From: Leptospiraceae bacterium
GTDB taxonomy: Bacteria > Spirochaetota > Leptospiria > Leptospirales > Leptonemataceae
Reading direction: 5' to 3'
DNA length: 64,000 nt
Assembly: GCA_040217195.1 (NCBI GenBank)
Contig: JAVJNR010000008.1
Span: forward strand, 416,001-480,000
Shown: piece by piece, positions 30,700-54,700 of the stretch
Position numbering within the stretch: the stretch's first letter is position 1
How the letters are laid out: every line of letters begins with the position of its first letter
Notes under the pieces: generated by a model
What the model saw: only the letters and a program-made list of their open reading frames with translations
The model's database searches: none
What the model was told of the DNA's origin: nothing
Translations under genes and position numbers: made by a program

Positions 30700-32154
30700 A
30701 TGCTCTTTAATACAGCTATATTTCTAATTTTCTTTGTATTTATTTATCTTGTTTACTGGAGCGTTCGCGGGCAGGCCAGGCTCTATGTAGTTGTACTTTC
30801 CTCCATTTTTTTCTACGCGTTCTGGTCGCCTCCCTTTGCAATCCACTTTCTATCTATAGTACTTCTGAACTTCCTGTTCATCCTGCGAATTAGAAATTCG
30901 CAGGCCAAAAAGGGATGGCTCATTGCGCTGGTTCTGCTTGATGCGACCAACCTATTTTTCTTTAAGTACTTCTACTTCTTTTTGCGGATCCTGCTGGATG
31001 TAACCGGATTAAATCTATTTGAACGACAGGAATTCAATCAGCTTCTGATAGATGAATTCTCAGTAAAAGGCATTGTACTTCCTCTTGCTATTAGCTTTTA
31101 CACATTTCAGTTAATCGCCTATGCAGTGGACACTTACCGGGGAGAAATCGAAAAAAGGCACAGCCTGATCCAATATTTAACATTCATATTGTTTTTTCCA
31201 CAACTGGTGGCAGGACCTATCGTCCGCCACAGCGAATTCTTCTATCAAATTGAGGATCCTCATTCCATAAAACCGGACCATCAAAAATTGATATCCGGAA
31301 TCTATCTTCTTATCCAGGGAGTGGTAAAAAAGATTCTGATCGCAGATAATCTGGTGCCGCACACTACATTGATTTTTGGGCAACCGGAACGATTTGACTG
31401 GTTTACACTTGTGGCCGGTTGCTTCGCATTCGGAGCACAGCTGTACTGCGATTTCTCCGGGTATACCGATCTTGCTCGTGGTCAGGGCAAGCTACTTGGC
31501 ATTGAACTACCGGAAAATTTCTTTGCTCCCTATTTCAGCCGCTCGGTTCGGGCTCTGTGGAATAACTGGCATCGAACTCTTACCTCCTGGCTTAGAGACT
31601 ATGTTTACATAGCCATGGGCGGCCAGTCCGTATCCTTTATTCGAACTCAGTTCAATGTAATTCTTACCTGGGCCATGGTAGGGCTATGGCATGGGGCCTC
31701 TTACAATTATCTACTTCTGGGCGTCTATCACGGTTGCTTTATCGCGATGGAAATTCAATACAGAAGGCTTCAAAAACAGGAAATACTTCCGGTTCTATCC
31801 CAGAGATTTCCCTGGCTGCAAAAACTTCAGGCCTTCACAGGACCTATTTATACACTAACAATTCTTGGCGCTGGATTCGTATTGTTTATCACGCCGGACA
31901 TGGAAACAGCAGCCACGATGTATGATCGTATGTTTACCGGTGCCACAGGCGAGCGATCCGTCTACACTGGCTGGTTCTTCAGTGCATTTCTGGCTGCCAT
32001 GATTTTCAATGCTTTTCAGCTAAAGCAGTACAGTCCAGGAAAGCAAAGAGCCTGGTTGTATTATCTGGCTCTTTTTGTTCTGGGCTTTCTGGTTGCAGCA
32101 TTGCTGGGTGCTTTCGCTCCGGGTTCAGAAGACTTCTTTTACTTTAAATTTTAG
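30700..32154 (+). CDS. MBOAT-family O-acyltransferase (AlgI/DltB-like)
   Basis: LPLAISFYTFQ, FFPQLVAGPIVR, YCDFSGYTD, WHRTL..WLRDYVYI, GLWHGA. Confidence 0.93.
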   Translation: MLFNTAIFLIFFVFIYLVYWSVRGQARLYVVVLSSIFFYAFWSPPFAIHFLSIVLLNFLFILRIRNSQAKKGWLIALVLLDATNLFFFKYFYFFLRILLDVTGLNLFERQEFNQLLIDEFSVKGIVLPLAISFYTFQLIAYAVDTYRGEIEKRHSLIQYLTFILFFPQLVAGPIVRHSEFFYQIEDPHSIKPDHQKLISGIYLLIQGVVKKILIADNLVPHTTLIFGQPERFDWFTLVAGCFAFGAQLYCDFSGYTDLARGQGKLLGIELPENFFAPYFSRSVRALWNNWHRTLTSWLRDYVYIAMGGQSVSFIRTQFNVILTWAMVGLWHGASYNYLLLGVYHGCFIAMEIQYRRLQKQEILPVLSQRFPWLQKLQAFTGPIYTLTILGAGFVLFITPDMETAATMYDRMFTGATGERSVYTGWFFSAFLAAMIFNAFQLKQYSPGKQRAWLYYLALFVLGFLVAALLGAFAPGSEDFFYFKF

Positions 32155-32171: not shown

Positions 32172-33323
32172 ATGGATTTTATTCGTTATAAAATACTTTT
32201 CATTCCATTACTGATGATTCTGGGACTTCTGGCTGCGGATCGACTATTCAACAATCCAGACATTGTAAAATACACAGTGCGATGGACAAACTTCGAAAGA
32301 GAGAATTACCAGTTCAAAGAAATGCTCTTTCGGCAACTTCTGGGTGAGGCATCGGATCGAGAAAAAGAAGGCCTCAAGCTGGGACTGTTGTTTGGCACTT
32401 CCAGGATCATGGAATTTGACAATACAGAAATAGACCGATTGACCGGGCAGCATTATACCTACAATTTTTCAGCACCGGCCGCCACCCCATCCTATTACTT
32501 TTACTGGCTGGAACGGATTCAGGAAGCAGGACTGCTGGACCAGGTGGACTTCGTTTTTTTGGAATTCGACCCCACTATACTGAATCGCACAAATACTAAA
32601 GTATCTCTGGCCTATTCCTATGATCCTGATTTTGTACTGGAGAATCTTGAACTGGACGAATCCAGACCACTAAACATTTGGGATGCGGAAGGAGCCGGCT
32701 TTAACGTGGATGAGGCGGAAACTTTCTTTGTGAAGCAGTATATCTCATTGAGTAAATATCCGATCAACCCGGCTAACATCCTGGAAAATCAAAAGACTAC
32801 CCTGGTTCCCACCGGCTCGGGGGATCTCAAAGCACTGCACAAGTGGGAAATCAAACAGGAGCTAATCCGAGAATCCAGAGAAACGTTGAGAAAGCATCGG
32901 GGCGGACGCCCTACTTACGCTCAGCCCGATCCGGATCCACAAGACCTGGCATCCCATGAGAGGATTACCAGTAGAATGCATATTCAGTATCTGGTTCTGG
33001 CACCATCGCAGATGATATTTTTTAAACGGACTTTGAGGTTGCTTGCAAGCCAAAGAAAAGAGGTAATTCTATACTGGCCTCCTTCCACTCCGGGTCTTCG
33101 CCAGGCAATGCAGGAATACGATTTATTCGATCGTCACAGAGCTGAACTAATTTCTCTGACGCAATCTCTGGAAGAAGAGTATCCCGGTGCTAGATTTACA
33201 ATTTTAGACCCAATGGAAATCGAAGGATTTCCCTGTCTGGACCTGGTGGACTCATTCCATCTAAAGAGCATGTGCTTTCCCGCTGTGGCCCGTCAGGTAG
33301 TGCAAATCCTGGAAAAAAGGTAA
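32172..33323 (+). CDS. DUF1574-like / SGNH-like partner of the MBOAT
   Basis: N-terminal TM, FGTSR, YNFSAPAATP, C-terminal DSFH (DxxH); directly follows the MBOAT gene. Confidence 0.7.
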   Translation: MDFIRYKILFIPLLMILGLLAADRLFNNPDIVKYTVRWTNFERENYQFKEMLFRQLLGEASDREKEGLKLGLLFGTSRIMEFDNTEIDRLTGQHYTYNFSAPAATPSYYFYWLERIQEAGLLDQVDFVFLEFDPTILNRTNTKVSLAYSYDPDFVLENLELDESRPLNIWDAEGAGFNVDEAETFFVKQYISLSKYPINPANILENQKTTLVPTGSGDLKALHKWEIKQELIRESRETLRKHRGGRPTYAQPDPDPQDLASHERITSRMHIQYLVLAPSQMIFFKRTLRLLASQRKEVILYWPPSTPGLRQAMQEYDLFDRHRAELISLTQSLEEEYPGARFTILDPMEIEGFPCLDLVDSFHLKSMCFPAVARQVVQILEKR

Positions 33324-33349: not shown

Positions 33350-34900
33350 TCAATGAATGGATCGATTTTGACCTTTCCAGAAAGGGTCTCTCAATTGCCT
33401 GCGGAGTACTTTGCCGGAGGGATTTCTGGGAAGAGCTTCAATCATTTCCACACGACGGGGCCGTTTGTACTGGGCCAGAGCTTCCGGTTTCCAGGACCGT
33501 AGCTCCGCTGCATCCATGCTACGATCTGAAACAATAAATGCGCAGACTGCCTCTCCAAATTCATCATCCGGTATGCCCACAACCGAAACGTCCCGTATGT
33601 CCGGATGCTCTGCCAGAAAGCGTTCCACCTCGATGGGATAGATTTTTTCTCCTTTGGATATGATCAGATCGTTCTTACGATCCAGTAGATACAGATAACC
33701 ATCCGAATCCAGATATCCAATGTCTCCCGAAGCGAACCAGCCGTCCTGAAAACATTCTTTGTTTTCCTCCGGTCGATTCCAGTAGCTATCCACAACGGTT
33801 GCTCCTCGCAGAAATACTTCTCCGGATTCTCCTGGTTTGCAGATTTCATCTCCTGAGCGAATCTGAATTTCAATTCCTGCAGCAGCCTTTCCAGCCGAGG
33901 CACTTCGATCCGGCGTTCCGGTCCTTGCTGCAGCCCTGGTGGATGAGGAATGCACCTGAAGTATGTCCAGATGATCCTGTACAGAAAGTATCGTTGCCAC
34001 TCCGGTGGTTTCTGTTAGACCATAGGCCTGGGTATAATCGCATTTCAACCTGGCATGGGATGCTTCCAGCAAAGGACGGGAAATGGGAGAGGCTCCGTAG
34101 ATCAAATGCTTCAGAGATGAGAAATCGGCGGTGGCTGCGTCCGGATGATTGATTACAGCCTGCTGCATGGCCGGAACCATCAATCCATGACTGATCTGAT
34201 GCGTCTCGATGGCCTGGATAACGGCCCCTGGATCAAAGCGAGGAAGCAAAACATTGGTCGCCCCTCCCAGAAAACCCATAAATAGAATACCTACGCCGGC
34301 GATATGGAAAAAAGGGGCACAGACCAGGTTGACGGATCCAAACCCAAAGGAAGGTGTTTCCAATCTGAGCTGTTCCAGCAAGGCCAGGATATTGGCATGA
34401 TTCATGGGCACGCCTTTAGGATGACTGGTTGTGCCCGATGTGTAGAGCTGAAGAAACGTCTGTCCGGCCTCCGGTAGAACCGGATTGTCCATTGCTGACT
34501 CGCTGCGTCCGGACTCCCAGAAATCGCCGGGAAGATTAACAACCTGGCGAGAAGACTCTTCCACCAGAGGTAGAAAATCCTTTCCTGCGAAAACGATCTG
34601 ACAATCCGCATCATCCAGAATGAAATCTGTTTCTTCTCGTGATAAACGCCAGTTCAGAATTACCGGAATTACACCTGCGAAAGCGCAGCCCAGAATTAGC
34701 TGCACAGCAGAGGCACTGTTGTATTCCAGAAGACCCACTCGATCGCCGGATTTTAGATCCATGCTCCTAAGTCGATGAGCCATGTAATGGGCCTTGTTTC
34801 TGAGCTCCCCGTAGGTGGCACTGGCCTGTCCGACCATGGCCGTTCTATCCGGACTGAGACGGGCCCGATATTCCAGAACCTCGATCAATGTACTATGCAT
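33350..34900 (-). CDS. Long-chain acyl-CoA synthetase / ANL adenylating enzyme
   Basis: YTSGTTSHPKG, AYGLTET, SGDIGY, IYPIEVE, LPRNPSGKV. Confidence 0.92.
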   Translation of the reverse strand: MHSTLIEVLEYRARLSPDRTAMVGQASATYGELRNKAHYMAHRLRSMDLKSGDRVGLLEYNSASAVQLILGCAFAGVIPVILNWRLSREETDFILDDADCQIVFAGKDFLPLVEESSRQVVNLPGDFWESGRSESAMDNPVLPEAGQTFLQLYTSGTTSHPKGVPMNHANILALLEQLRLETPSFGFGSVNLVCAPFFHIAGVGILFMGFLGGATNVLLPRFDPGAVIQAIETHQISHGLMVPAMQQAVINHPDAATADFSSLKHLIYGASPISRPLLEASHARLKCDYTQAYGLTETTGVATILSVQDHLDILQVHSSSTRAAARTGTPDRSASAGKAAAGIEIQIRSGDEICKPGESGEVFLRGATVVDSYWNRPEENKECFQDGWFASGDIGYLDSDGYLYLLDRKNDLIISKGEKIYPIEVERFLAEHPDIRDVSVVGIPDDEFGEAVCAFIVSDRSMDAAELRSWKPEALAQYKRPRRVEMIEALPRNPSGKVLRRQLRDPFWKGQNRSIH

Positions 34901-34942
34901 AACTAATCCCTATTCGATTTTCTCCGGTCTAATTCTTCGGGA

Positions 34943-35977
34943 CTACGGTCTATTGATTTCCTGATACAGGGCGGCTCCGCCCGAATAGCCGGCCCCGGCT
35001 GCAGTAAGCAGAACTCTTGCCCCCGGAAATAACTTTCCCTCTCTGCGAGCCACATCCAGGGCAAAAGGAAGGGTAGCAGACGTTGTATTTCCGGTATAAT
35101 CGATGGTGATTACAGTCTTATCCATGGAAATGCCCAGTTTCTGTCCCACCGTTTTCATGATTTTTAGATTTGCCTGATGTGGAATGAAGCAATCGATTTG
35201 ATCCAACGATATATCTGCCTGCTCGCAAACCAGAATACATAACTCGGACATGGCCTCCACTGCATCTGCGAATATCTGATGACCATCCACAGTCATTTTC
35301 ACCGAATGCAGGCCCTTCTTAACAGTCTCCTCCGAAGCAGGCATGGCACTGCCTCCTGCAGGCGTATAGAGATTCAGGGCTCTGGATCCATCGGACCAGA
35401 GTTCGCAGCCAAGCATACCGCCTGAGGCCTCCGTCCTGGAAAGTATGATGGCGCCCGCCCCATCGGCAAAAATGGGGCCCAGCCGCCTGTCCCGGGCCTG
35501 GATAAATCGAGACTTGATGTCTGCTCCAATGACCATTACATGATTCAATCCGCCAGCCACCAGACGCACTCCATGGTCCAGACCAAACAGAAAACTGGCG
35601 CAGGCCGATTGCTTATCTTCTGCCGGGCAGTCCGCTCCAATGAGATTCTGTATGCGATTTGCCGCTGCAGGAGAGGTCCAGTCCCCGGTAGTTGTACAAA
35701 GGATGATATGATCCAGATCCGTAGCCTTCAGCCCGGCATTCTCCAGAGCCAGAAGGGCAGCAGATGCACCCAGGTCGCTGGTTGCCAGATTCGAATCCGC
35801 AAAATGTCTCTGCCGCACACCCACATGACTTTCAATCCATTCAGGTGTTGTATCCAGGGAACGATCCCTGATTAGAATCTCATTGTCCACGGGACTTGAA
35901 GGCAAAAAGCCACCGGAACCGGAAATGAATATTCCGGACGGATAACCCGGTCTAATTCTGGTGTATCTTTGTGCCAT
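34943..35977 (-). CDS. 3-oxoacyl synthase III (FabH-like) #1
   Basis: Cys-His-Asn triad: SACASF, IPHQAN, TGNT; IFADGAGA. Confidence 0.9.
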   Translation of the reverse strand: MAQRYTRIRPGYPSGIFISGSGGFLPSSPVDNEILIRDRSLDTTPEWIESHVGVRQRHFADSNLATSDLGASAALLALENAGLKATDLDHIILCTTTGDWTSPAAANRIQNLIGADCPAEDKQSACASFLFGLDHGVRLVAGGLNHVMVIGADIKSRFIQARDRRLGPIFADGAGAIILSRTEASGGMLGCELWSDGSRALNLYTPAGGSAMPASEETVKKGLHSVKMTVDGHQIFADAVEAMSELCILVCEQADISLDQIDCFIPHQANLKIMKTVGQKLGISMDKTVITIDYTGNTTSATLPFALDVARREGKLFPGARVLLTAAGAGYSGGAALYQEINRP

Positions 35978-35986
35978 GGCGTTTAA

Positions 35987-37249
35987 CTAATCTGCAATAA
36001 TGAAAGCTGTATTTCCAGGAGGATGCTCATTTAGTCTCATTCGACCATGAATAGTTCCAATCTCTTCAAAGGAATGAATGGCTCCCAGATAGGGAGCCAA
36101 TTTTCCATCCTGGATCAATTGATGTAAGTAATCGATGTCGGGCCGACCGGCAAAATGGGAGCCCTGAAGGCGCTGACTACTTGAGCAGAAAAGCCCTCCT
36201 TCCATTTGAGCCATATAGCCGGTGGTGCCTGCACAAATCACAACCATTCCGCCGGAAGAACAACAATACTGAGATATTGGAAGAGTATTCTGCCCTGGAT
36301 GCTCCAATACAATTTCAGGACTGACACCACCTGTTAATCGTAATACTTCTTCTCGAAAAGCATCTGCCTGTTTGAACCAGGAGCGGTCCCGAGCTCCAAC
36401 GGGCAGACCCGGCACTATGAATTCCGAGCGATTGATGGCCACCGCACCCAGAGATTCTACCACCGACTTTTTTTCCTGCGAATTCACCACTGCCACAGGT
36501 AGGCCTCCGCAGCTTCGCACAATCTGAATGGCCATGGAGCCAACTCCACCGGCACCGCCCCATATAAGTACAGGCATACCCCGAGAAACGGTATTGGGAG
36601 ACCAGTGAAGTAGCATTCGAACGGCTGTGGCCCCGCAAAGCAGATATACGGCACTTTGATTCCAATCCAGGGCCTTTGGCCTGGGATAGAGTTGCCAGGA
36701 TTTCACAAGACAGAACTGAGCAAAGGAGCCCCAGTTAGTCTCATAGCCCCAGGCTAGCAGGCTGGGAGCCATGGAAGGATCGCCTCCGGACTGAATGTAT
36801 GGATCGGATGAATCCCAGCTGGCAGGAGACACAACCACTTCATCACCTTCATGAAAATTCTGAACGCTGGAACCGGTGGCATAAACTATCCCTGCAGCAT
36901 CAGATCCTCCTATGTGAAAATCCTCACCGGCTCCCTGCTTCATGCGCATGGAAATCACATCCACTGGATGACCCAGGGAAGCCCAGACATTGTTGTAGTT
37001 CAGACCGGCCCTCTTCACAGCTACCAGAACTTCATCCGGTCCAGGCAAAGGTACATCCACAATTTCCATTTGAAAGGCACTGGAAGGATCTCCATACCTC
37101 TCTCGCCGAATCACCTGGGCATGCATCTTTTCCGGAATGGGTCCGGGCCCTGGCAATTCTCCCAGGGGCAACGGTGTAGCTACTGATTCCATTTGATGGT
37201 GGGGCTCCCGGTTGCTGGTATGAGGCGGATTGAAAAGTATATCAATCAT
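35987..37249 (-). CDS. ccr: Crotonyl-CoA carboxylase/reductase-family enoyl-CoA carboxylase
   Basis: AGLNYNNVW, HIGGSDAAG, WGYETNWGSFAQF, VLIWGGAGG, EHPG, CAGTTGY, LQGSHFA. Alternative start MESV at 37192. Confidence 0.88.
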   Translation of the reverse strand: MIDILFNPPHTSNREPHHQMESVATPLPLGELPGPGPIPEKMHAQVIRRERYGDPSSAFQMEIVDVPLPGPDEVLVAVKRAGLNYNNVWASLGHPVDVISMRMKQGAGEDFHIGGSDAAGIVYATGSSVQNFHEGDEVVVSPASWDSSDPYIQSGGDPSMAPSLLAWGYETNWGSFAQFCLVKSWQLYPRPKALDWNQSAVYLLCGATAVRMLLHWSPNTVSRGMPVLIWGGAGGVGSMAIQIVRSCGGLPVAVVNSQEKKSVVESLGAVAINRSEFIVPGLPVGARDRSWFKQADAFREEVLRLTGGVSPEIVLEHPGQNTLPISQYCCSSGGMVVICAGTTGYMAQMEGGLFCSSSQRLQGSHFAGRPDIDYLHQLIQDGKLAPYLGAIHSFEEIGTIHGRMRLNEHPPGNTAFIIAD

Positions 37250-37376
37250 AATTCAATATTAGGATTCAGATAGAAAACACCGTCCGGTCCCTCAAATCCA
37301 GATCCCCGGAAAGAAGCCGAGCTGTAACAGAGAAAAAAATTCTATCTTTGCAGATATAGAACGGAACAAACGAGTC

Positions 37377-38423
37377 ATGGGCGGATTAAAACTTACACCG
37401 GTTCCGGGAGTAGCACTCATGGGAGCCTCCAGCGCCTTCTCTGCCTCAGGTACCTGGGTAAGTAACGAAGATATTCATGCCCTGGTTTATGGTCCTGACT
37501 GGAGGGAGGCCATGGCAATAAAAGGCCTGGACCCGGATCATCCGGCGAAGAAAGGGTTTAGCCGCAGACACTGGACCCTGCCTCCGGAGTCGCCCAGGAC
37601 TGGACAGGAAGAGAATTCGGCGGATCTAATGCAACAGGCTGCAGAAAAAGTGCTCAGTGAAACCGGAATGTCGATTCGAGAAATAGATCTATTCATCGCC
37701 GTTTCTACCACGTCGCCCAGGTATACATCGTCCCTGGGTACTCTGGTAGGCGGCCGCCTGGGATTTCAGGGCCCTGCTTTCGAAATGAAATCTGGCTGTT
37801 CCAGCACAATCTATGCTCTGAGCATTGCCTATCAATTCCTGGCCGGGGCAGCCCGTTCAGTATTGATCGCATCTGCTGAAACTCTCAGTCGTGTAATCTC
37901 AATAAACGGTCCATTTATCTATGCGGCCGGAGATGGAGCAGGAGCTATTCTATTGCAGAAAGTGGATGATCCAGGCAGGGGACTTGTAACTGGATTTCTG
38001 AATTCTGATGGAAGCTATGCGGATTCCATGGGAGTTCCGGGCATCCTGCCACCTACCAGGCAGGCCCTGGATCAGCAGGAATATTACATGGGCCAATCGG
38101 ATTCCCTCTCCTCCGATGTGAAACCGTTCTGGATGCAATCCCAGCAATCCTTAATTGAATCTGAAAATCGCAGCTTTCAGGACATCGACCTTTACATACC
38201 TCATCAGACAAGTAATTCCATTCTTGATCTGCTGGCTCAATCCATGGGATCCCACTCGAATAAACTTTTCCGATGCCTGGACCGTTACGGCAATTGCGGA
38301 TCGGCCACTTTACCCATTGCTCTGGCTGAAGCTCTGGAAGGGCAACAGGCATCCGGCCGGCGAATTCTATTAAATGCAGTGGGTGGTGGATTGGCCTGGG
38401 GCAGCCTTCTAATCAATACTTAG
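37377..38423 (+). CDS. 3-oxoacyl synthase III (FabH-like) #2
   Basis: Triad SGCSS, IPHQ, YGNCGSAT; GDGAGA; VGGGLAWG. Confidence 0.88.
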   Translation: MGGLKLTPVPGVALMGASSAFSASGTWVSNEDIHALVYGPDWREAMAIKGLDPDHPAKKGFSRRHWTLPPESPRTGQEENSADLMQQAAEKVLSETGMSIREIDLFIAVSTTSPRYTSSLGTLVGGRLGFQGPAFEMKSGCSSTIYALSIAYQFLAGAARSVLIASAETLSRVISINGPFIYAAGDGAGAILLQKVDDPGRGLVTGFLNSDGSYADSMGVPGILPPTRQALDQQEYYMGQSDSLSSDVKPFWMQSQQSLIESENRSFQDIDLYIPHQTSNSILDLLAQSMGSHSNKLFRCLDRYGNCGSATLPIALAEALEGQQASGRRILLNAVGGGLAWGSLLINT

Positions 38424-38462
38424 TGACTATTCGGGAAATCATAACAGGACTGAAAACATTCC

Positions 38463-39221
38463 ATGCATGGAAAAACTGTAATCATTCTGGGCGCCAGCCG
38501 CGGCATTGGCGCTGAAACAGCAGAACTGCTGGCGGCCAGGCAGGCCCGGATATTGCTGATCGCAAGAAACGGCGGCGAGCTGAAAAAACTTCTGGATTCA
38601 TTACCCGGCACGGATCATTCGCATCTGGTACTGGACCTGGCCGAATCAGAGAGTGCCCACTCCATCATGGAACACTGTAAACAGTGGGGCATCCCGGACA
38701 TAGTTGTGTGGAATTATTTCGCCAGATCGGATTTGGGGCGACTGAGCCAATTACAGGCTAATTCTCTAAGCGGTGCAATTAGCAGAAATTGCGAAGTTCC
38801 TCTGGCTCTGTATCGCGGTTTTCTGCCCGAACAGAAGAATCAAAAATTCGGTCGATGGATCCTGGTGAGCTCGGCCATTGCAGGTCTGTCAGGCCCGGGA
38901 CAGGGAGTTTACGGCGCAGTTAAATCAGTTCAGGAATCCTTGATCCGTACCATAGCAGTAGAACAGGGACACAATGAAATAACCGGAAATATCGTCCGAC
39001 CCGGATTCATAGATACTCCAGGCGTTCAGCAAAACTATGATTCGCAGACCAGGCAAAAGCTGGCTTCCATGAATTTACCAGCCAGAGCGGGCAGTCCGAA
39101 AGAAGTGGCTGCAGCCATTGGCTATCTGGCCTCAGACCAGGCAGGTTTCGTAAATGGAACAGTGCTTCCAGTGGACGGAGGAATGAATCTGGGCTGGTTT
39201 CTGCGAAGGGAAAGCAAGTAA
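38463..39221 (+). CDS. SDR oxidoreductase (FabG-like ketoreductase)
   Basis: GASRGIG, VSS, YGAVK (YxxxK), PGFIDT, VDGG. Confidence 0.9.
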   Translation: MHGKTVIILGASRGIGAETAELLAARQARILLIARNGGELKKLLDSLPGTDHSHLVLDLAESESAHSIMEHCKQWGIPDIVVWNYFARSDLGRLSQLQANSLSGAISRNCEVPLALYRGFLPEQKNQKFGRWILVSSAIAGLSGPGQGVYGAVKSVQESLIRTIAVEQGHNEITGNIVRPGFIDTPGVQQNYDSQTRQKLASMNLPARAGSPKEVAAAIGYLASDQAGFVNGTVLPVDGGMNLGWFLRRESK

Positions 39222-51584: not shown

Positions 51585-53606
51585 ATGTCCAAAAAAGACC
51601 ATGTGATCTATGATAAAGAAGGCAATCCCAGCCGGGATCGGCCATGGATCTTTAGAACGTACGGTGGCCATACCAATGTCTGGGAAACCAACAAACTCTA
51701 CCGCGAAGGTCTGAGTCGAGGTCAGACCGGACTGTCCATAGCATTTGATCTTCCCACCCAGTGCGGTTACAGCTCCAGCCATACCCTGGCCAAACCGGAA
51801 GTAGGCAAGGTTGGAGTTCCCATCAACTCCCTGGACGATTTTCATGTACTCTTCGATCAAATTCCAATCGAAGAAATGAACACTTCCATGACCATTAACG
51901 GCACAGCCATGTGGCTGCTTGCACTGTACGTGGCCCTGGCCAGAGAAAAAGGCGTGGAACTCAGCCAGCTTCAGGGAACTACCCAGAACGATCTGGTAAA
52001 AGAGTATTTAGCTCGAGGAACTTACATATTCCCCCCGGAAGCGAGCTTTCGACTGATTTCCGAGATGTATGAATATTGCATCAAAGAAATCCCAAAATGG
52101 AATCCATCCAACATCTGTTCCTATCACCTTCAGGAGGCTGGAGCTACTCCGGCCCAGGAACTGGCCTTTGCACTGGCCAATGCAATTGGTCTACTGGATA
52201 TAATCAAAGAACGAGGAAATCTTGAAAAAGAGCAGTTCGAGGAAGTAGTGGGTCGCATTAGTTTCTTCGTCAACGCAGGCATTCGCTTTGTGGAAGAAAT
52301 GTGTAAGATGCGAGCCTTCACCGAACTCTGGGAAGAGATAACCCGGGATCGGTATGGCGTAGATAATCCGAAGTTTCGCAGATTTCGCTACGGAGTTCAG
52401 GTTAACTCTCTGGGCCTTACCGAGAATCAGCCGGAGAATAATGCCTGGAGAATCCTTATGGAGACCCTGGGTGTGACTCTTAGCAAGAATGCACGATGTA
52501 GAGCTCTGCAACTGCCTGCCTGGAATGAGGCCCTATCCCTGCCCCGTCCCTGGGACCAGCAATGGTCCCTGCGGTTGCAACAAATCATGGCCTATGAAAC
52601 AGACCTTCTGGAATATCCAGACCTGTTCGATGGAAGCAAAGTTGTAGAATCCAAAGTTTCTGAGCTCAAGGATGCCACAAGAAGCGAAATCGACCGAATT
52701 CTGAAAATGGGTGGAATACGCTCCGCTGTAGAATCCGGTTATATGAAATCTGCACTGGTCAAATCCATGTCCGAGCGAATGAGCCGTATAAATACCGGCG
52801 AGCAGATCGTAGTAGGCGTGAACAAGTGGACCGAAGCAATCGATAGTCCTCTGCTTGGTGGCGAAGATGGTGGTGTATTCAAAGTGGATGCAGAAAGTGC
52901 AGATCGCACCGTACAATCCATGGAAGAGACCAGGTCCAAACGCGATCCGCAACGAGTTAAAAAGGCCCTGGAGGATTTAAAGAAAGCAGCCAATGAAGGA
53001 ACCAATTTGATGGAGCCTTCTGTGGAATGTGCTCTGGCGCGTGTGACCACCGGCGAATGGGCCGATGCACTTCGCCAGGTATTTGGAGAGTACAGACCAC
53101 CCACAGGGATTGATGGACAGAAGCTTTCCCTGGAAAACGATAGAGTAAATGCTCTTCGCAAGCGAGTGGAAGATTTTACAACAAAAGCCGGCCACAGACC
53201 TCGTATCGTGGTGGGTAAACCTGGTCTGGACGGGCATAGCAATGGGGCTGAAATGATTGCAGTGTCTGCAAGACATACAGGTTTCGATGTTATCTATTCT
53301 GGAATCCGTCTGACTCCTGAGGAAATAGTCCAAAGTGCTGTAGAAGAAAATGCAGATATAATTGGCATTTCCGTTCTGTCAGGATCGCATATGGAGCTGG
53401 CAGATCAGATCATAGAGGAATTGAAGAAAGCCGGAGCCTCGGATCATATTCCCGTGGTCTTTGGAGGAATCATTCCAAAAGCAGATTTCGAGGCACTGAC
53501 CGGCCGAGGAATTCGCAAGATCTTCACTCCTTCCGATTTCGAACTAATCGATATCATGGAAAAGATTTTCGATATAGTTGAAAAGAATCAGGCCGCCCTG
53601 GTTTGA
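51585..53606 (+). CDS. ecm: Ethylmalonyl-CoA mutase (MeaA), B12-dependent
   Basis: RPWIFRTYGGH, GQTGLSIAFDLPTQ, YGVQVNSLGLTE.QPENN, LQLPAWNEAL.LPRPWDQQWSLR; B12-binding GKPGLDGHSNGAE. Confidence 0.93.
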   Translation: MSKKDHVIYDKEGNPSRDRPWIFRTYGGHTNVWETNKLYREGLSRGQTGLSIAFDLPTQCGYSSSHTLAKPEVGKVGVPINSLDDFHVLFDQIPIEEMNTSMTINGTAMWLLALYVALAREKGVELSQLQGTTQNDLVKEYLARGTYIFPPEASFRLISEMYEYCIKEIPKWNPSNICSYHLQEAGATPAQELAFALANAIGLLDIIKERGNLEKEQFEEVVGRISFFVNAGIRFVEEMCKMRAFTELWEEITRDRYGVDNPKFRRFRYGVQVNSLGLTENQPENNAWRILMETLGVTLSKNARCRALQLPAWNEALSLPRPWDQQWSLRLQQIMAYETDLLEYPDLFDGSKVVESKVSELKDATRSEIDRILKMGGIRSAVESGYMKSALVKSMSERMSRINTGEQIVVGVNKWTEAIDSPLLGGEDGGVFKVDAESADRTVQSMEETRSKRDPQRVKKALEDLKKAANEGTNLMEPSVECALARVTTGEWADALRQVFGEYRPPTGIDGQKLSLENDRVNALRKRVEDFTTKAGHRPRIVVGKPGLDGHSNGAEMIAVSARHTGFDVIYSGIRLTPEEIVQSAVEENADIIGISVLSGSHMELADQIIEELKKAGASDHIPVVFGGIIPKADFEALTGRGIRKIFTPSDFELIDIMEKIFDIVEKNQAALV

Positions 53607-53622
53607 TCCATCAGGGAATACA

Positions 53623-53657
53623 AAGGCGATGCTTCCATTATCCGAAGCATCGTCCTT
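53623..53657. other. Intergenic stem-loop between ecm and meaB
   Basis: AAGGCGATGCTTC...GAAGCATCGTCCTT; no U-tract, possibly an mRNA-stabilising hairpin. Confidence 0.45.
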
Positions 53658-53689
53658 GAGCATCTTTAGCTCAGAAGGAAACTCTGTAA

Positions 53690-54700
53690 ATGCCCGACCC
53701 CATAGAATTGATTCCCGCAGCCTTTAATCGGCAGAAATTCGCCATTGCACGGCTGGTCTCTCTGTTCGAAGACCCAAGACCGGAAGCAGCCCTGAAGCGA
53801 AAGGAAGTTCTAGAAACAATGCAATCCTCCCGAAAGTCCCGTAGAGGAATGTTTCTGGGTTTTACAGGTACCCCCGGCGCTGGAAAATCCACTCTTGTAG
53901 GCGAACTGGCCAACAGGTTCATCCAGCAGAATCCGAATAAGAGCCTGGCAGTACTGGCAGTTGATCCATCTTCCCACGTTTCTGGTGGTTCCATTCTGGG
54001 TGATCGCACCAGGGTTCGATTTTCCCTGGGCGATGATCGATTGTATTTTCGCAGCCAGGCCTCAGATCAGGAGCTGGGCGGAATCAGCCGAACGACGTTT
54101 TCCGTGCTGCGGCTGCTCTATCATATCTTTGATGTAATCATCATTGAAACCGTTGGAATAGGCCAGAGCGAAATTGAAATTCAGCAAACCGCCGATCGAG
54201 TGTTCCTATTGCTGCAGCCACTGGCCGGAGATCAGATCCAATTTATGAAAGCCGGTATCATGGAGATCCCGGATACATTTATCATTAACAAATCGGATGA
54301 AAAGGAAGCAGCAGAACGCACATTCCATGCCCTCAGAGCCAGTCTGCAATTGATTCGCCCGGGGGAAGCCCGGGTTCCCATCTTTCGCACCAGCGCCCTG
54401 ACCGGTATGGGGCTCAACGAGGTTCTGGATTACTGGAATTCTCTATTCAAAGAACGCACTGACCCGGCCGCGCTGGATGCATCTTTGTACCGACGAGAGG
54501 TTTACTATTTTGAGAAATGGGTGAAGGATGAACTGGGTCGCCAGGGACTGCGAATGCTGGCAGACCTGGGCGGGCCCAGGCATCTGATGGACAGTGCAAA
54601 TGGATTCGACGGAGCTCAAAAAGCCATTCTGGAAGTGGTAAATCGCTCTTTGAGCCAGCTGGAATCAGAAGTGACAGAGTCAATTACAGAGAAATCCTGA
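53690..54700 (+). CDS. meaB: MeaB/ArgK-family GTPase chaperone of B12 mutase
   Basis: GFTGTPGAGKST, LAVDPSS..SGGSILGDRTR, ETVGIGQSE, Q.MKAGIMEI, INKSD. Confidence 0.93.
   Translation: MPDPIELIPAAFNRQKFAIARLVSLFEDPRPEAALKRKEVLETMQSSRKSRRGMFLGFTGTPGAGKSTLVGELANRFIQQNPNKSLAVLAVDPSSHVSGGSILGDRTRVRFSLGDDRLYFRSQASDQELGGISRTTFSVLRLLYHIFDVIIIETVGIGQSEIEIQQTADRVFLLLQPLAGDQIQFMKAGIMEIPDTFIINKSDEKEAAERTFHALRASLQLIRPGEARVPIFRTSALTGMGLNEVLDYWNSLFKERTDPAALDASLYRREVYYFEKWVKDELGRQGLRMLADLGGPRHLMDSANGFDGAQKAILEVVNRSLSQLESEVTESITEKS

Follow-up and report, generated by a model that had tools for sequence, protein, structure and literature searches.

A seven-gene island in a Leptospiraceae genome may build an alpha-branched beta-hydroxy acyl group and transfer it to the cell envelope

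A 64,000-nucleotide stretch of the Leptospiraceae bacterium assembly GCA_040217195.1 (contig JAVJNR010000008.1, positions 416,001 to 480,000; here, the window) carries a discrete, conserved island of seven genes. These encode an MBOAT membrane acyltransferase, a membrane-anchored SGNH protein of the DUF1574 family, an ANL adenylating enzyme, two ketoacyl synthase III (KAS III) enzymes, a crotonyl-CoA carboxylase/reductase (CCR) paralogue, and a short-chain dehydrogenase/reductase (SDR). We propose, at slightly less than even odds (probability about 0.45), that, with no acyl carrier protein (ACP) involved, the island yields a beta-hydroxy fatty acyl-CoA carrying an alpha-alkyl branch and that the acyl group is moved across the inner membrane onto an envelope acceptor. 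A first-pass annotation of the same DNA had described a five-gene cluster starting at position 33350; those genes are real and linked, but the unit comprises seven genes and starts at 30700, the MBOAT and DUF1574 genes having been missed.

The island opens on the plus strand with the MBOAT gene (30700..32154, 484 amino acids [aa]), recognized by its Pfam MBOAT domain, a His that aligns with that of DltB, and its absence from the empty site described below. The DUF1574 gene follows (32172..33323, plus strand, 383 aa), its product being DltD-like by Pfam DUF1574 match, alignment, and structure model. On the minus strand lie the gene for the fatty acyl-CoA ligase-like ANL enzyme (33350..34900, 516 aa; AMP-binding and PRK06187), the first KAS III gene (KS1; 34943..35977, 344 aa; ACP_syn_III, Cys126-His267-Asn297), which likely encodes the decarboxylating subunit, and the cluster-specific CCR gene (35987..37249; TIGR01751 and pocket residues). 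Across a divergent intergenic gap (37250..37376), in which the promoter scan found no sigma-70-like consensus site, the plus strand carries the second KAS III gene (KS2; 37377..38423, 348 aa; ACP_syn_III), of a divergent subfamily with a FabH fold and an invariant Cys141, and finally the FabG-like SDR ketoreductase gene (38463..39221, 252 aa; adh_short, Ser137-Tyr150-Lys154). The five open reading frames (ORFs) first reported are all intact at the positions and on the strands given for them, and their families were confirmed (AMP-binding, ACP_syn_III twice, TIGR01751, and adh_short). The 127-bp length reported for the gap is right if counted from the first ATG of the CCR gene, but two congener CCRs begin at the equivalent of Met20 (position 37192); this is the probable true start, and the real gap may be about 184 bp.

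Comparison of the purC site across genomes defines the borders of the island. (The source genome is G000; other G-numbers denote compared genomes.) In G036, G037, and the window, the site is occupied by MBOAT, DUF1574, ligase, KS1, CCR, KS2, and SDR. All seven genes are missing from G035 and G038, where a WD40 gene follows purC after about 140 and 120 bp, respectively, and in G039 purC is followed by a metallo-beta-lactamase gene. Because purC abuts the WD40 gene in G035 and G038, the presence or absence of the MBOAT and DUF1574 genes follows that of the five-gene core; the best DUF1574 match in G035 reaches 28%. We considered the downstream WD40 and metallo-beta-lactamase genes as island members and rejected both, the former being present at the G035 and G038 empty site and the latter in all three congeners. 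Independent metagenome contigs, the best-covering runs being marine metagenomes with no RNA run listed, cover the stretch and span the DUF1574-ANL junction, so the island is no assembly artefact. Promoter and terminator scans returned fewer hits than shuffled sequence (7 versus 11.9 and 8 versus 9.5, respectively), no outstanding boundary repeats were seen, and there was no plasmid match at 1e-30. GC content is 0.51 to 0.52 in the core, 0.44 to 0.46 in MBOAT/DUF1574, and 0.46 to 0.50 in the flanks, values that are not decisive.

Taking the two KAS III, SDR, and ligase genes as the core, we found it in 16 of 156 genomes of the order, in at least six gene orders (kin among these genomes are not independent), and it is missing from the other 140. 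The expectation that the genes co-occur in relatives was borne out: the ligase and SDR profiles each pick the same 17 genomes, namely, the 16 core-bearing ones and G154, where both genes sit at a contig end, with the qualification that 10 and 12 of these loci went into the profiles, so that these members match by construction. KS2 matches at 1e-45 occur in 15 of the 156 genomes, the sixteenth having a diverged copy, and KS1 matches at 1e-40 occur in 17, one of which is an ordinary FabH. A CCR gene is linked in 15 of the 16 (cut by the contig end in G001); the exception, G041, is 78% complete. In 11 of the 16, MBOAT and DUF1574 genes are both found within the cluster or next to it, often inside the operon, and G040 has DUF1574 only, at a contig end. 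Three genomes have the DUF1574 gene lodged between ligase and CCR at distances of no more than 10 bp, and in four it overlaps the KS2 frame. A phylum-wide sample yielded 4 positives among 401 genomes, all from the same order. Relatives of KS2 and SDR also carry the names Parafilimonas, Panacibacter, and Chitinophagales, and one 3.8-kb metagenome contig, Bacteroidota-like by inferred taxon, has the order KS2-KS1-SDR-ligase; such contigs hold the four-gene core only, within their short reach. No Bacteroidota-named CCR appeared among the best 120 of 7668 matches, which is weak evidence. In G153, a genome with 7% contamination, KS2-KS1-SDR occurs again as a near-copy on a short contig (C582, L077), reflecting either duplication or mixed strains.

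The CCR is a specialized paralogue with a widened pocket. It scores 419.5 bits against TIGR01751 (cutoff, 378.55) and keeps the CO2-binding residues Asn86, Tyr169, Glu170, and His365, matching the Asn, Phe/Tyr, Glu, and His that form the CO2 pocket of KsCcr (PMC6628652). The substrate pocket differs: the window CCR has Pro142 and Ala166, and all 15 cluster CCRs have Ala at the second position and Pro, Ala, or Gly at the first; these positions are Ile and Cys, respectively, in 32 of 32 housekeeping copies. In Caulobacter Ccr, C146P and I169A, two of three changes that admit large substrates, open the pocket (PMC8360864); we carried this numbering over by motif, not by direct alignment. By the same motif mapping, of the three pocket positions at which long-chain CinF/AntE-type CCRs would have small residues, two are widened in the cluster enzyme (Pro and Ala), the third being still Phe. 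Since this residue stays aromatic, a medium chain is our best guess, and the substrate is probably a medium-chain enoyl-CoA longer than crotonyl-CoA. In an unrooted tree with long branches, from which ten near-redundant housekeeping rows were left out, the cluster CCRs lie on one side of a branch (SH-aLRT, 100) from 25 housekeeping copies; the nearest listed relatives are leptospiral housekeeping CCRs. We rejected a role for the island CCR in the ethylmalonyl-CoA pathway, as a separate, short-branched CCR with the Cys/Ile pocket exists in G000 and in most family members, with matches in 37 of 42 genomes. The G000 housekeeping copy (C1:157681-158937) groups with proteins named Leptospira, Leptospiraceae, and Leptospirales. 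Elsewhere in the window (51585-54700), a B12-dependent mutase that scores below the methylmalonyl-CoA mutase cutoff is followed by a MeaB-like GTPase; the mutase is probably an ethylmalonyl-CoA mutase, fitting that housekeeping CCR, and a possible ethylmalonyl-CoA pathway in Leptospira is mentioned in PMC5798300.

Both KAS III enzymes had been credited with a Cys-His-Asn triad. This is so in the window (C126/H267/N297 in KS1, which retains Cys, His, and both Asn, and C141/H276/N306 in KS2), but the KS2 His is not conserved: across 73 partly redundant orthologue rows, Cys is present in 73, Asn in 72, and His in only 60, which suggests that KS2 loads or holds acyl groups instead of decarboxylating. 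The pair was also expected to fall outside housekeeping FabH, and in a tree with FabH-class rows KS1 and KS2 each form a dedicated clade (SH-aLRT, 100), KS1 among those rows and KS2 outside them. Neither reaches the TIGR00747 (FabH) cutoff of 292.1 (KS1, 252; KS2, 142), and on the broader PRK09352 model (cutoff, 249) KS1 passes at 282 and KS2 fails at 160. Given their patchy distribution, their own clades, and the lack of FabD, we rejected housekeeping FabH as an identity for either. They are the only FabH-type enzymes above the Pfam cutoff in G000. Separately, an unclassified KAS III-like group (P0083-P0128) with no NCBIfam model match at 1e-70 branches between KS2 and FabH.

The type of condensation can be approached through a single residue. 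Non-decarboxylative condensases have a glutamate base (PMC7064751) 24 to 26 residues before the catalytic Cys, as in OleA (E117/C143), PpyS (E105/C129), and NocG (E100/C125) (PMC9486936). This glutamate is present in none of 18 KS1 and none of 73 KS2 rows, again partly redundant, and its absence argues that a carboxylated extender is needed. A model of the KS1-KS2 heterodimer, the one dimer of the two enzymes that was modeled, scores 0.92 against 0.00 for the best control; among solved complexes 116 of 157 attain the mark, as do 2 of 215 mismatched pairs. At least 93% of contacts agree between runs, and partner pLDDT is at least 90. The interface is that of an ordinary FabH dimer, however, and since FabH dimers are already solved, the score may reflect likeness only. 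The KS2 structure model has the general FabH fold (TM about 0.8) and singles out no subfamily.

The ligase looks like a fatty acyl-CoA ligase and not like a beta-lactone synthetase. It scores 450 bits on PRK06187, a long-chain acyl-CoA ligase model (cutoff, 476), its best solved relatives are acyl-CoA synthetases, and profile scores set it apart from OleC/NltC, since on PRK09274, which we take to be the OleC model, it reaches 140 bits (cutoff, 478). In the SDR, S137, Y150, K154, and R35 are invariant in 12 of 12 rows, and the glycine-rich motif and a basic residue for NADPH are present; its nearest structures are FabG, and it scores below the TIGR01830 cutoff.

The genomic background fits the observation, made at the outset, that no ACP, polyketide synthase (PKS), or fabD lies near the cluster. 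The single ACP of G000 is on another contig beside fabG, its only PF00698 domain is inside a fatty acid synthase (FAS) of type I, and we found no PKS in this genome. A FabD-sized PF00698 frame is absent from G000 and 11 of the 14 other cluster genomes, that is, 12 of 15, and present in the remaining 3, in a search that covered all but 13 to 17 kb of three of those 14 genomes; with this acyltransferase missing so widely, an ACP-free route is likely on the gene content. In G000, one run (C4:516791-532952, L108) holds a fungal/corynebacterial-type FAS I of 3313 aa, an AcpS-type transferase, and a single-chain biotin carboxylase of 1941 aa, and G035, G036, and G147 likewise have frames that contain an acyltransferase domain and measure about 3300 aa.

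The two remaining genes have the features of an envelope acylation pair. The MBOAT has a catalytic His331, aligned with DltB, and a C-terminal FxYxxF acyl-shuttle motif with Tyr481, invariant in 13 of 13 rows; in PatA/PatB, the tyrosine of the same C-terminal motif of PatA is acylated from acyl-CoA (PMC12148441). DUF1574, of which these genomes hold several copies, is listed as an SGNH family without known activity in PMC9487903. In the island protein, Ser77, Asp360, and His363 are invariant in a 13-row alignment, and the ten best Foldseek matches of its model (pLDDT, 90.5) are all DltD (TM, 0.34 to 0.41). The closest branch to the window MBOAT group, as its sister, is the MBOAT from within the G001 cluster, whose gene order differs (support, 100/99; 89 in a second tree), and a single origin of all linked MBOATs is rejected (p-AU, 9.8e-6). 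Four clusters have, just upstream of MBOAT, between one and three paralogous ORFs for Cys-rich, lipoprotein-like products of about 350 to 420 aa (L070:11214-12440, L071:11429-15140, L075:10939-13287, and L076:11071-13484). They are 31 to 68% identical to one another, have no Pfam match, no usable Atlas match, and no G000 homologue, and are candidate acyl acceptors.

Taken together, these features suggest the following route. The ligase would turn a fatty acid into acyl-CoA, and the CCR paralogue would carboxylate an enoyl-CoA longer than crotonyl-CoA to an alkylmalonyl-CoA. KS1 and KS2, as a predicted heterodimer with the full triad supplied by KS1, would condense the two decarboxylatively, and the SDR would use NADPH to reduce the 3-oxo group, giving a small mycolate-type 2-alkyl-3-hydroxyacyl-CoA. 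The acyl group could then pass to the C-terminal tyrosine of the MBOAT, to Ser77 of DUF1574, and on to a periplasmic acceptor, be it a glycan, lipopolysaccharide, or a lipoprotein. We infer every chemical step of this scheme; what we observed are the genes and their linkage, the conserved catalytic residues, and the empty site. The condensation of an acyl-CoA with CCR-made alkylmalonyl-CoA, followed by reduction, had already been suggested, and this part fits the CCR pocket and the missing glutamate base; the suggested cyclization is weak, and the MBOAT and DUF1574 genes point to envelope transfer and not to a free lactone. The fuller picture, in which MBOAT-SGNH acylation has its own donor factory, a CO2-fixing CCR with a two-cysteine KAS III heterodimer, and sets a mini mycolate-like lipid made on CoA on the surface, possibly on the Cys-rich lipoproteins of the clusters, is doubtful.

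Several observations weigh against the proposed route. The Arg/Tyr pair that binds the CoA phosphates in KsCcr (10.1101/607101), R352/Y353, is Gly/Leu in the window CCR, as located by counting back from the His; the Arg is lost in 8 of 14 cluster CCRs, and the pair is kept in 32 of 32 housekeeping copies. Characterized MBOAT-SGNH pairs carry acetyl or D-alanyl groups, not large acyl groups, in the accounts of PMC9487903 and PMC12148441. The window pair lies tail to tail with the ligase gene, 8 bp after purC, and would thus be transcribed apart from the core. G020, G024, and G059 have the core and CCR without linked MBOAT or DUF1574, and G041 lacks both a cluster CCR and a directly linked pair. 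Cluster MBOATs come from two lineages, not one clade, and the ten other MBOATs of G000 (11 in all), at further loci, also end in FxYxxF, which makes the motif uninformative on the donor of the island MBOAT; it is thus gene order and the empty site, and not sequence, that tie the pair to the core. (One of these ten is fused into a 1041-aa frame, C2:284012-287137.) The A8 glycine plays a role in the CoA tunnel of ANL enzymes, and it is Ser or Ala in 6 of 14 ligase orthologues, a point in favor of adenylate-only chemistry in those six copies. Finally, G000 has one ACP and a stand-alone FAS-type starter transacylase, a 386-aa homologue (27% identity) of the FAS-I N-terminal transacylase domain (C2:187512-188672, L112), so use of acyl-ACP is conceivable.

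Several of these points would also be expected if the five-gene core made a branched acyl-CoA or free hydroxy acid for other lipid enzymes, with MBOAT-DUF1574 as a passenger engaged in independent O-acetylation of the envelope. A directly linked pair is missing from 4 of the 16 core-bearing genomes, the MBOATs that are linked have two lineages, the family is expanded in G000, and the Bacteroidota-like contigs show the four-gene core only. We nevertheless consider this account unlikely. All seven genes are missing together at the empty site, the core operon encloses the DUF1574 gene in two distinct layouts, and two separate recruitments of the same gene pair would be improbable by chance.

It is rather less probable that one KAS III, the SDR, and a housekeeping dehydratase build the enoyl-CoA precursor, or that the genes form a CoA elongation cycle with CCR as enoyl reductase, the product being a modified acyl-CoA and not a head-to-head condensate. 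Such a role would be in keeping with the FabH-plus-CCR extender cassettes of ossamycin and divergolide (PMC6490886), with KS1 and KS2 being the only FabH-type enzymes in G000 over the Pfam cutoff, and with the active Cys in both, which permits two separate condensations. A fatty acid desaturase gene that in 4 of 16 clusters shares its sequence with the end of CCR in an overlap (L070:13886-14902, with equivalents in L071, L075, and L076) could be read in the same way; a G000 homologue (48%) is unlinked, at C10:710893-711999. No dehydratase gene was seen in any cluster examined, however, where ORFs beyond the query set are partly annotated. G000 has no PKS to receive an extender, its FAS-I already supplies chains, and the core is missing from most of the order.

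A beta-lactone product is more improbable again. The first-pass annotation had drawn an analogy with the lipstatin, nocardiolactone, and Ole pathways, and the enzyme classes are indeed identical to the four of nltABCD (10.1101/856955); a KAS III heterodimer is plausible from the model, and 6 of 14 ligases have another residue in place of the A8 glycine. The analogy nevertheless lacks support at three defining points, as there is no glutamate base in KS1 or KS2, no Cys-less second subunit (the KS2 Cys is invariant, unlike in NltB/LstB), and no beta-lactone-synthetase-like ligase, with 140 of 478 bits on PRK09274 against 450 of 476 on the long-chain acyl-CoA ligase model. Moreover, the decarboxylative route ends in a thioester, no thioesterase is linked, and a lactone leaves MBOAT-DUF1574 unexplained. 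A free metabolite of the alkyl-alpha-pyrone or resorcinol type is a highly improbable product of the KAS III pair: KAS III-type enzymes with alkylmalonyl extenders can yield pyrones, as for germicidin (PMC6490886), but the FabG-like reductase accompanies the pair in every case and would eliminate the ketone required for ring closure, the PpyS glutamate is absent, the pair scores 22 and 35 against 550 bits on the DarB model, and CorB and MxnB matches are far weaker than those to FabH.

We found no description of this cluster in the literature searched, although genome-mining supplements could list it. The island pairs two known chemistries, envelope acylation and branched acyl synthesis, and we did not find this pairing described. 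On the envelope side, it resembles PatA/PatB, AlgI/AlgJ, and DltB/DltX/DltD, in which an MBOAT with a His and an FxYxxF tyrosine shuttle stands beside a membrane-anchored Ser/Asp/His SGNH protein (PMC12148441, PMC9487903), and DltD is the best structural match of the DUF1574 model. Unlike in those systems, whose donors are acetyl-CoA or a D-alanyl carrier protein in the same sources, the partner is DUF1574, and the neighboring enzymes would supply the pair with a donor of its own. Our reading gives DUF1574 a testable function, its first if the fuller picture is true, and would extend MBOAT-SGNH systems from acetyl and alanyl groups to a purpose-built branched lipid.

On the synthetic side, LstABCD, NltABCD, and OleACD likewise do without an ACP and combine a pair of KAS III-like genes with an SDR and an ANL enzyme (10.1101/856955, PMC12141560, PMC7064751), by way of a 2-alkyl-3-oxo and then a 3-hydroxy intermediate, as proposed for the island. 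The heterodimer that is obligate in LstAB and NltAB is predicted as probable for the island pair. In LstAB and NltAB, the second subunit lacks the Cys-His-Asn triad, whereas both island KAS III enzymes keep the Cys. The island further differs in its dedicated CCR, implying decarboxylative condensation, its acyl-CoA-ligase-like ligase, and its MBOAT-SGNH linkage. A second, widened-pocket CCR beside a FabH-type gene is also found in the AntE, CinF, OssC/OssD, and DivR/DivS cassettes (PMC6490886). Unlike these PKS extender cassettes, the island has no PKS or ACP, and a stand-alone KAS III pair would use the extender. This would be a compact ACP-free route to alpha-branched beta-hydroxy acids, and biocatalysis could draw on its natural widened-pocket CCR and new KAS III pair. 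A further prediction is that relatives of Leptospira, and perhaps Chitinophagales, have an undescribed surface lipid that varies between strains.

The mycolic acid route (FadD32, AccD4, Pks13, CmrA, and Ag85) activates one chain, carboxylates another, condenses and reduces them, and transfers the product outside. By analogy only, the island would follow the same logic, in that a 2-alkyl-3-hydroxy acyl group is made and then moved outside the membrane. It differs in having CCR for the carboxylase, KAS III for the PKS, and MBOAT-SGNH for MmpL3/Ag85, and its chains are probably much shorter. If the fuller, more doubtful picture is true, mycolate-type chemistry has been reinvented in diderm bacteria.

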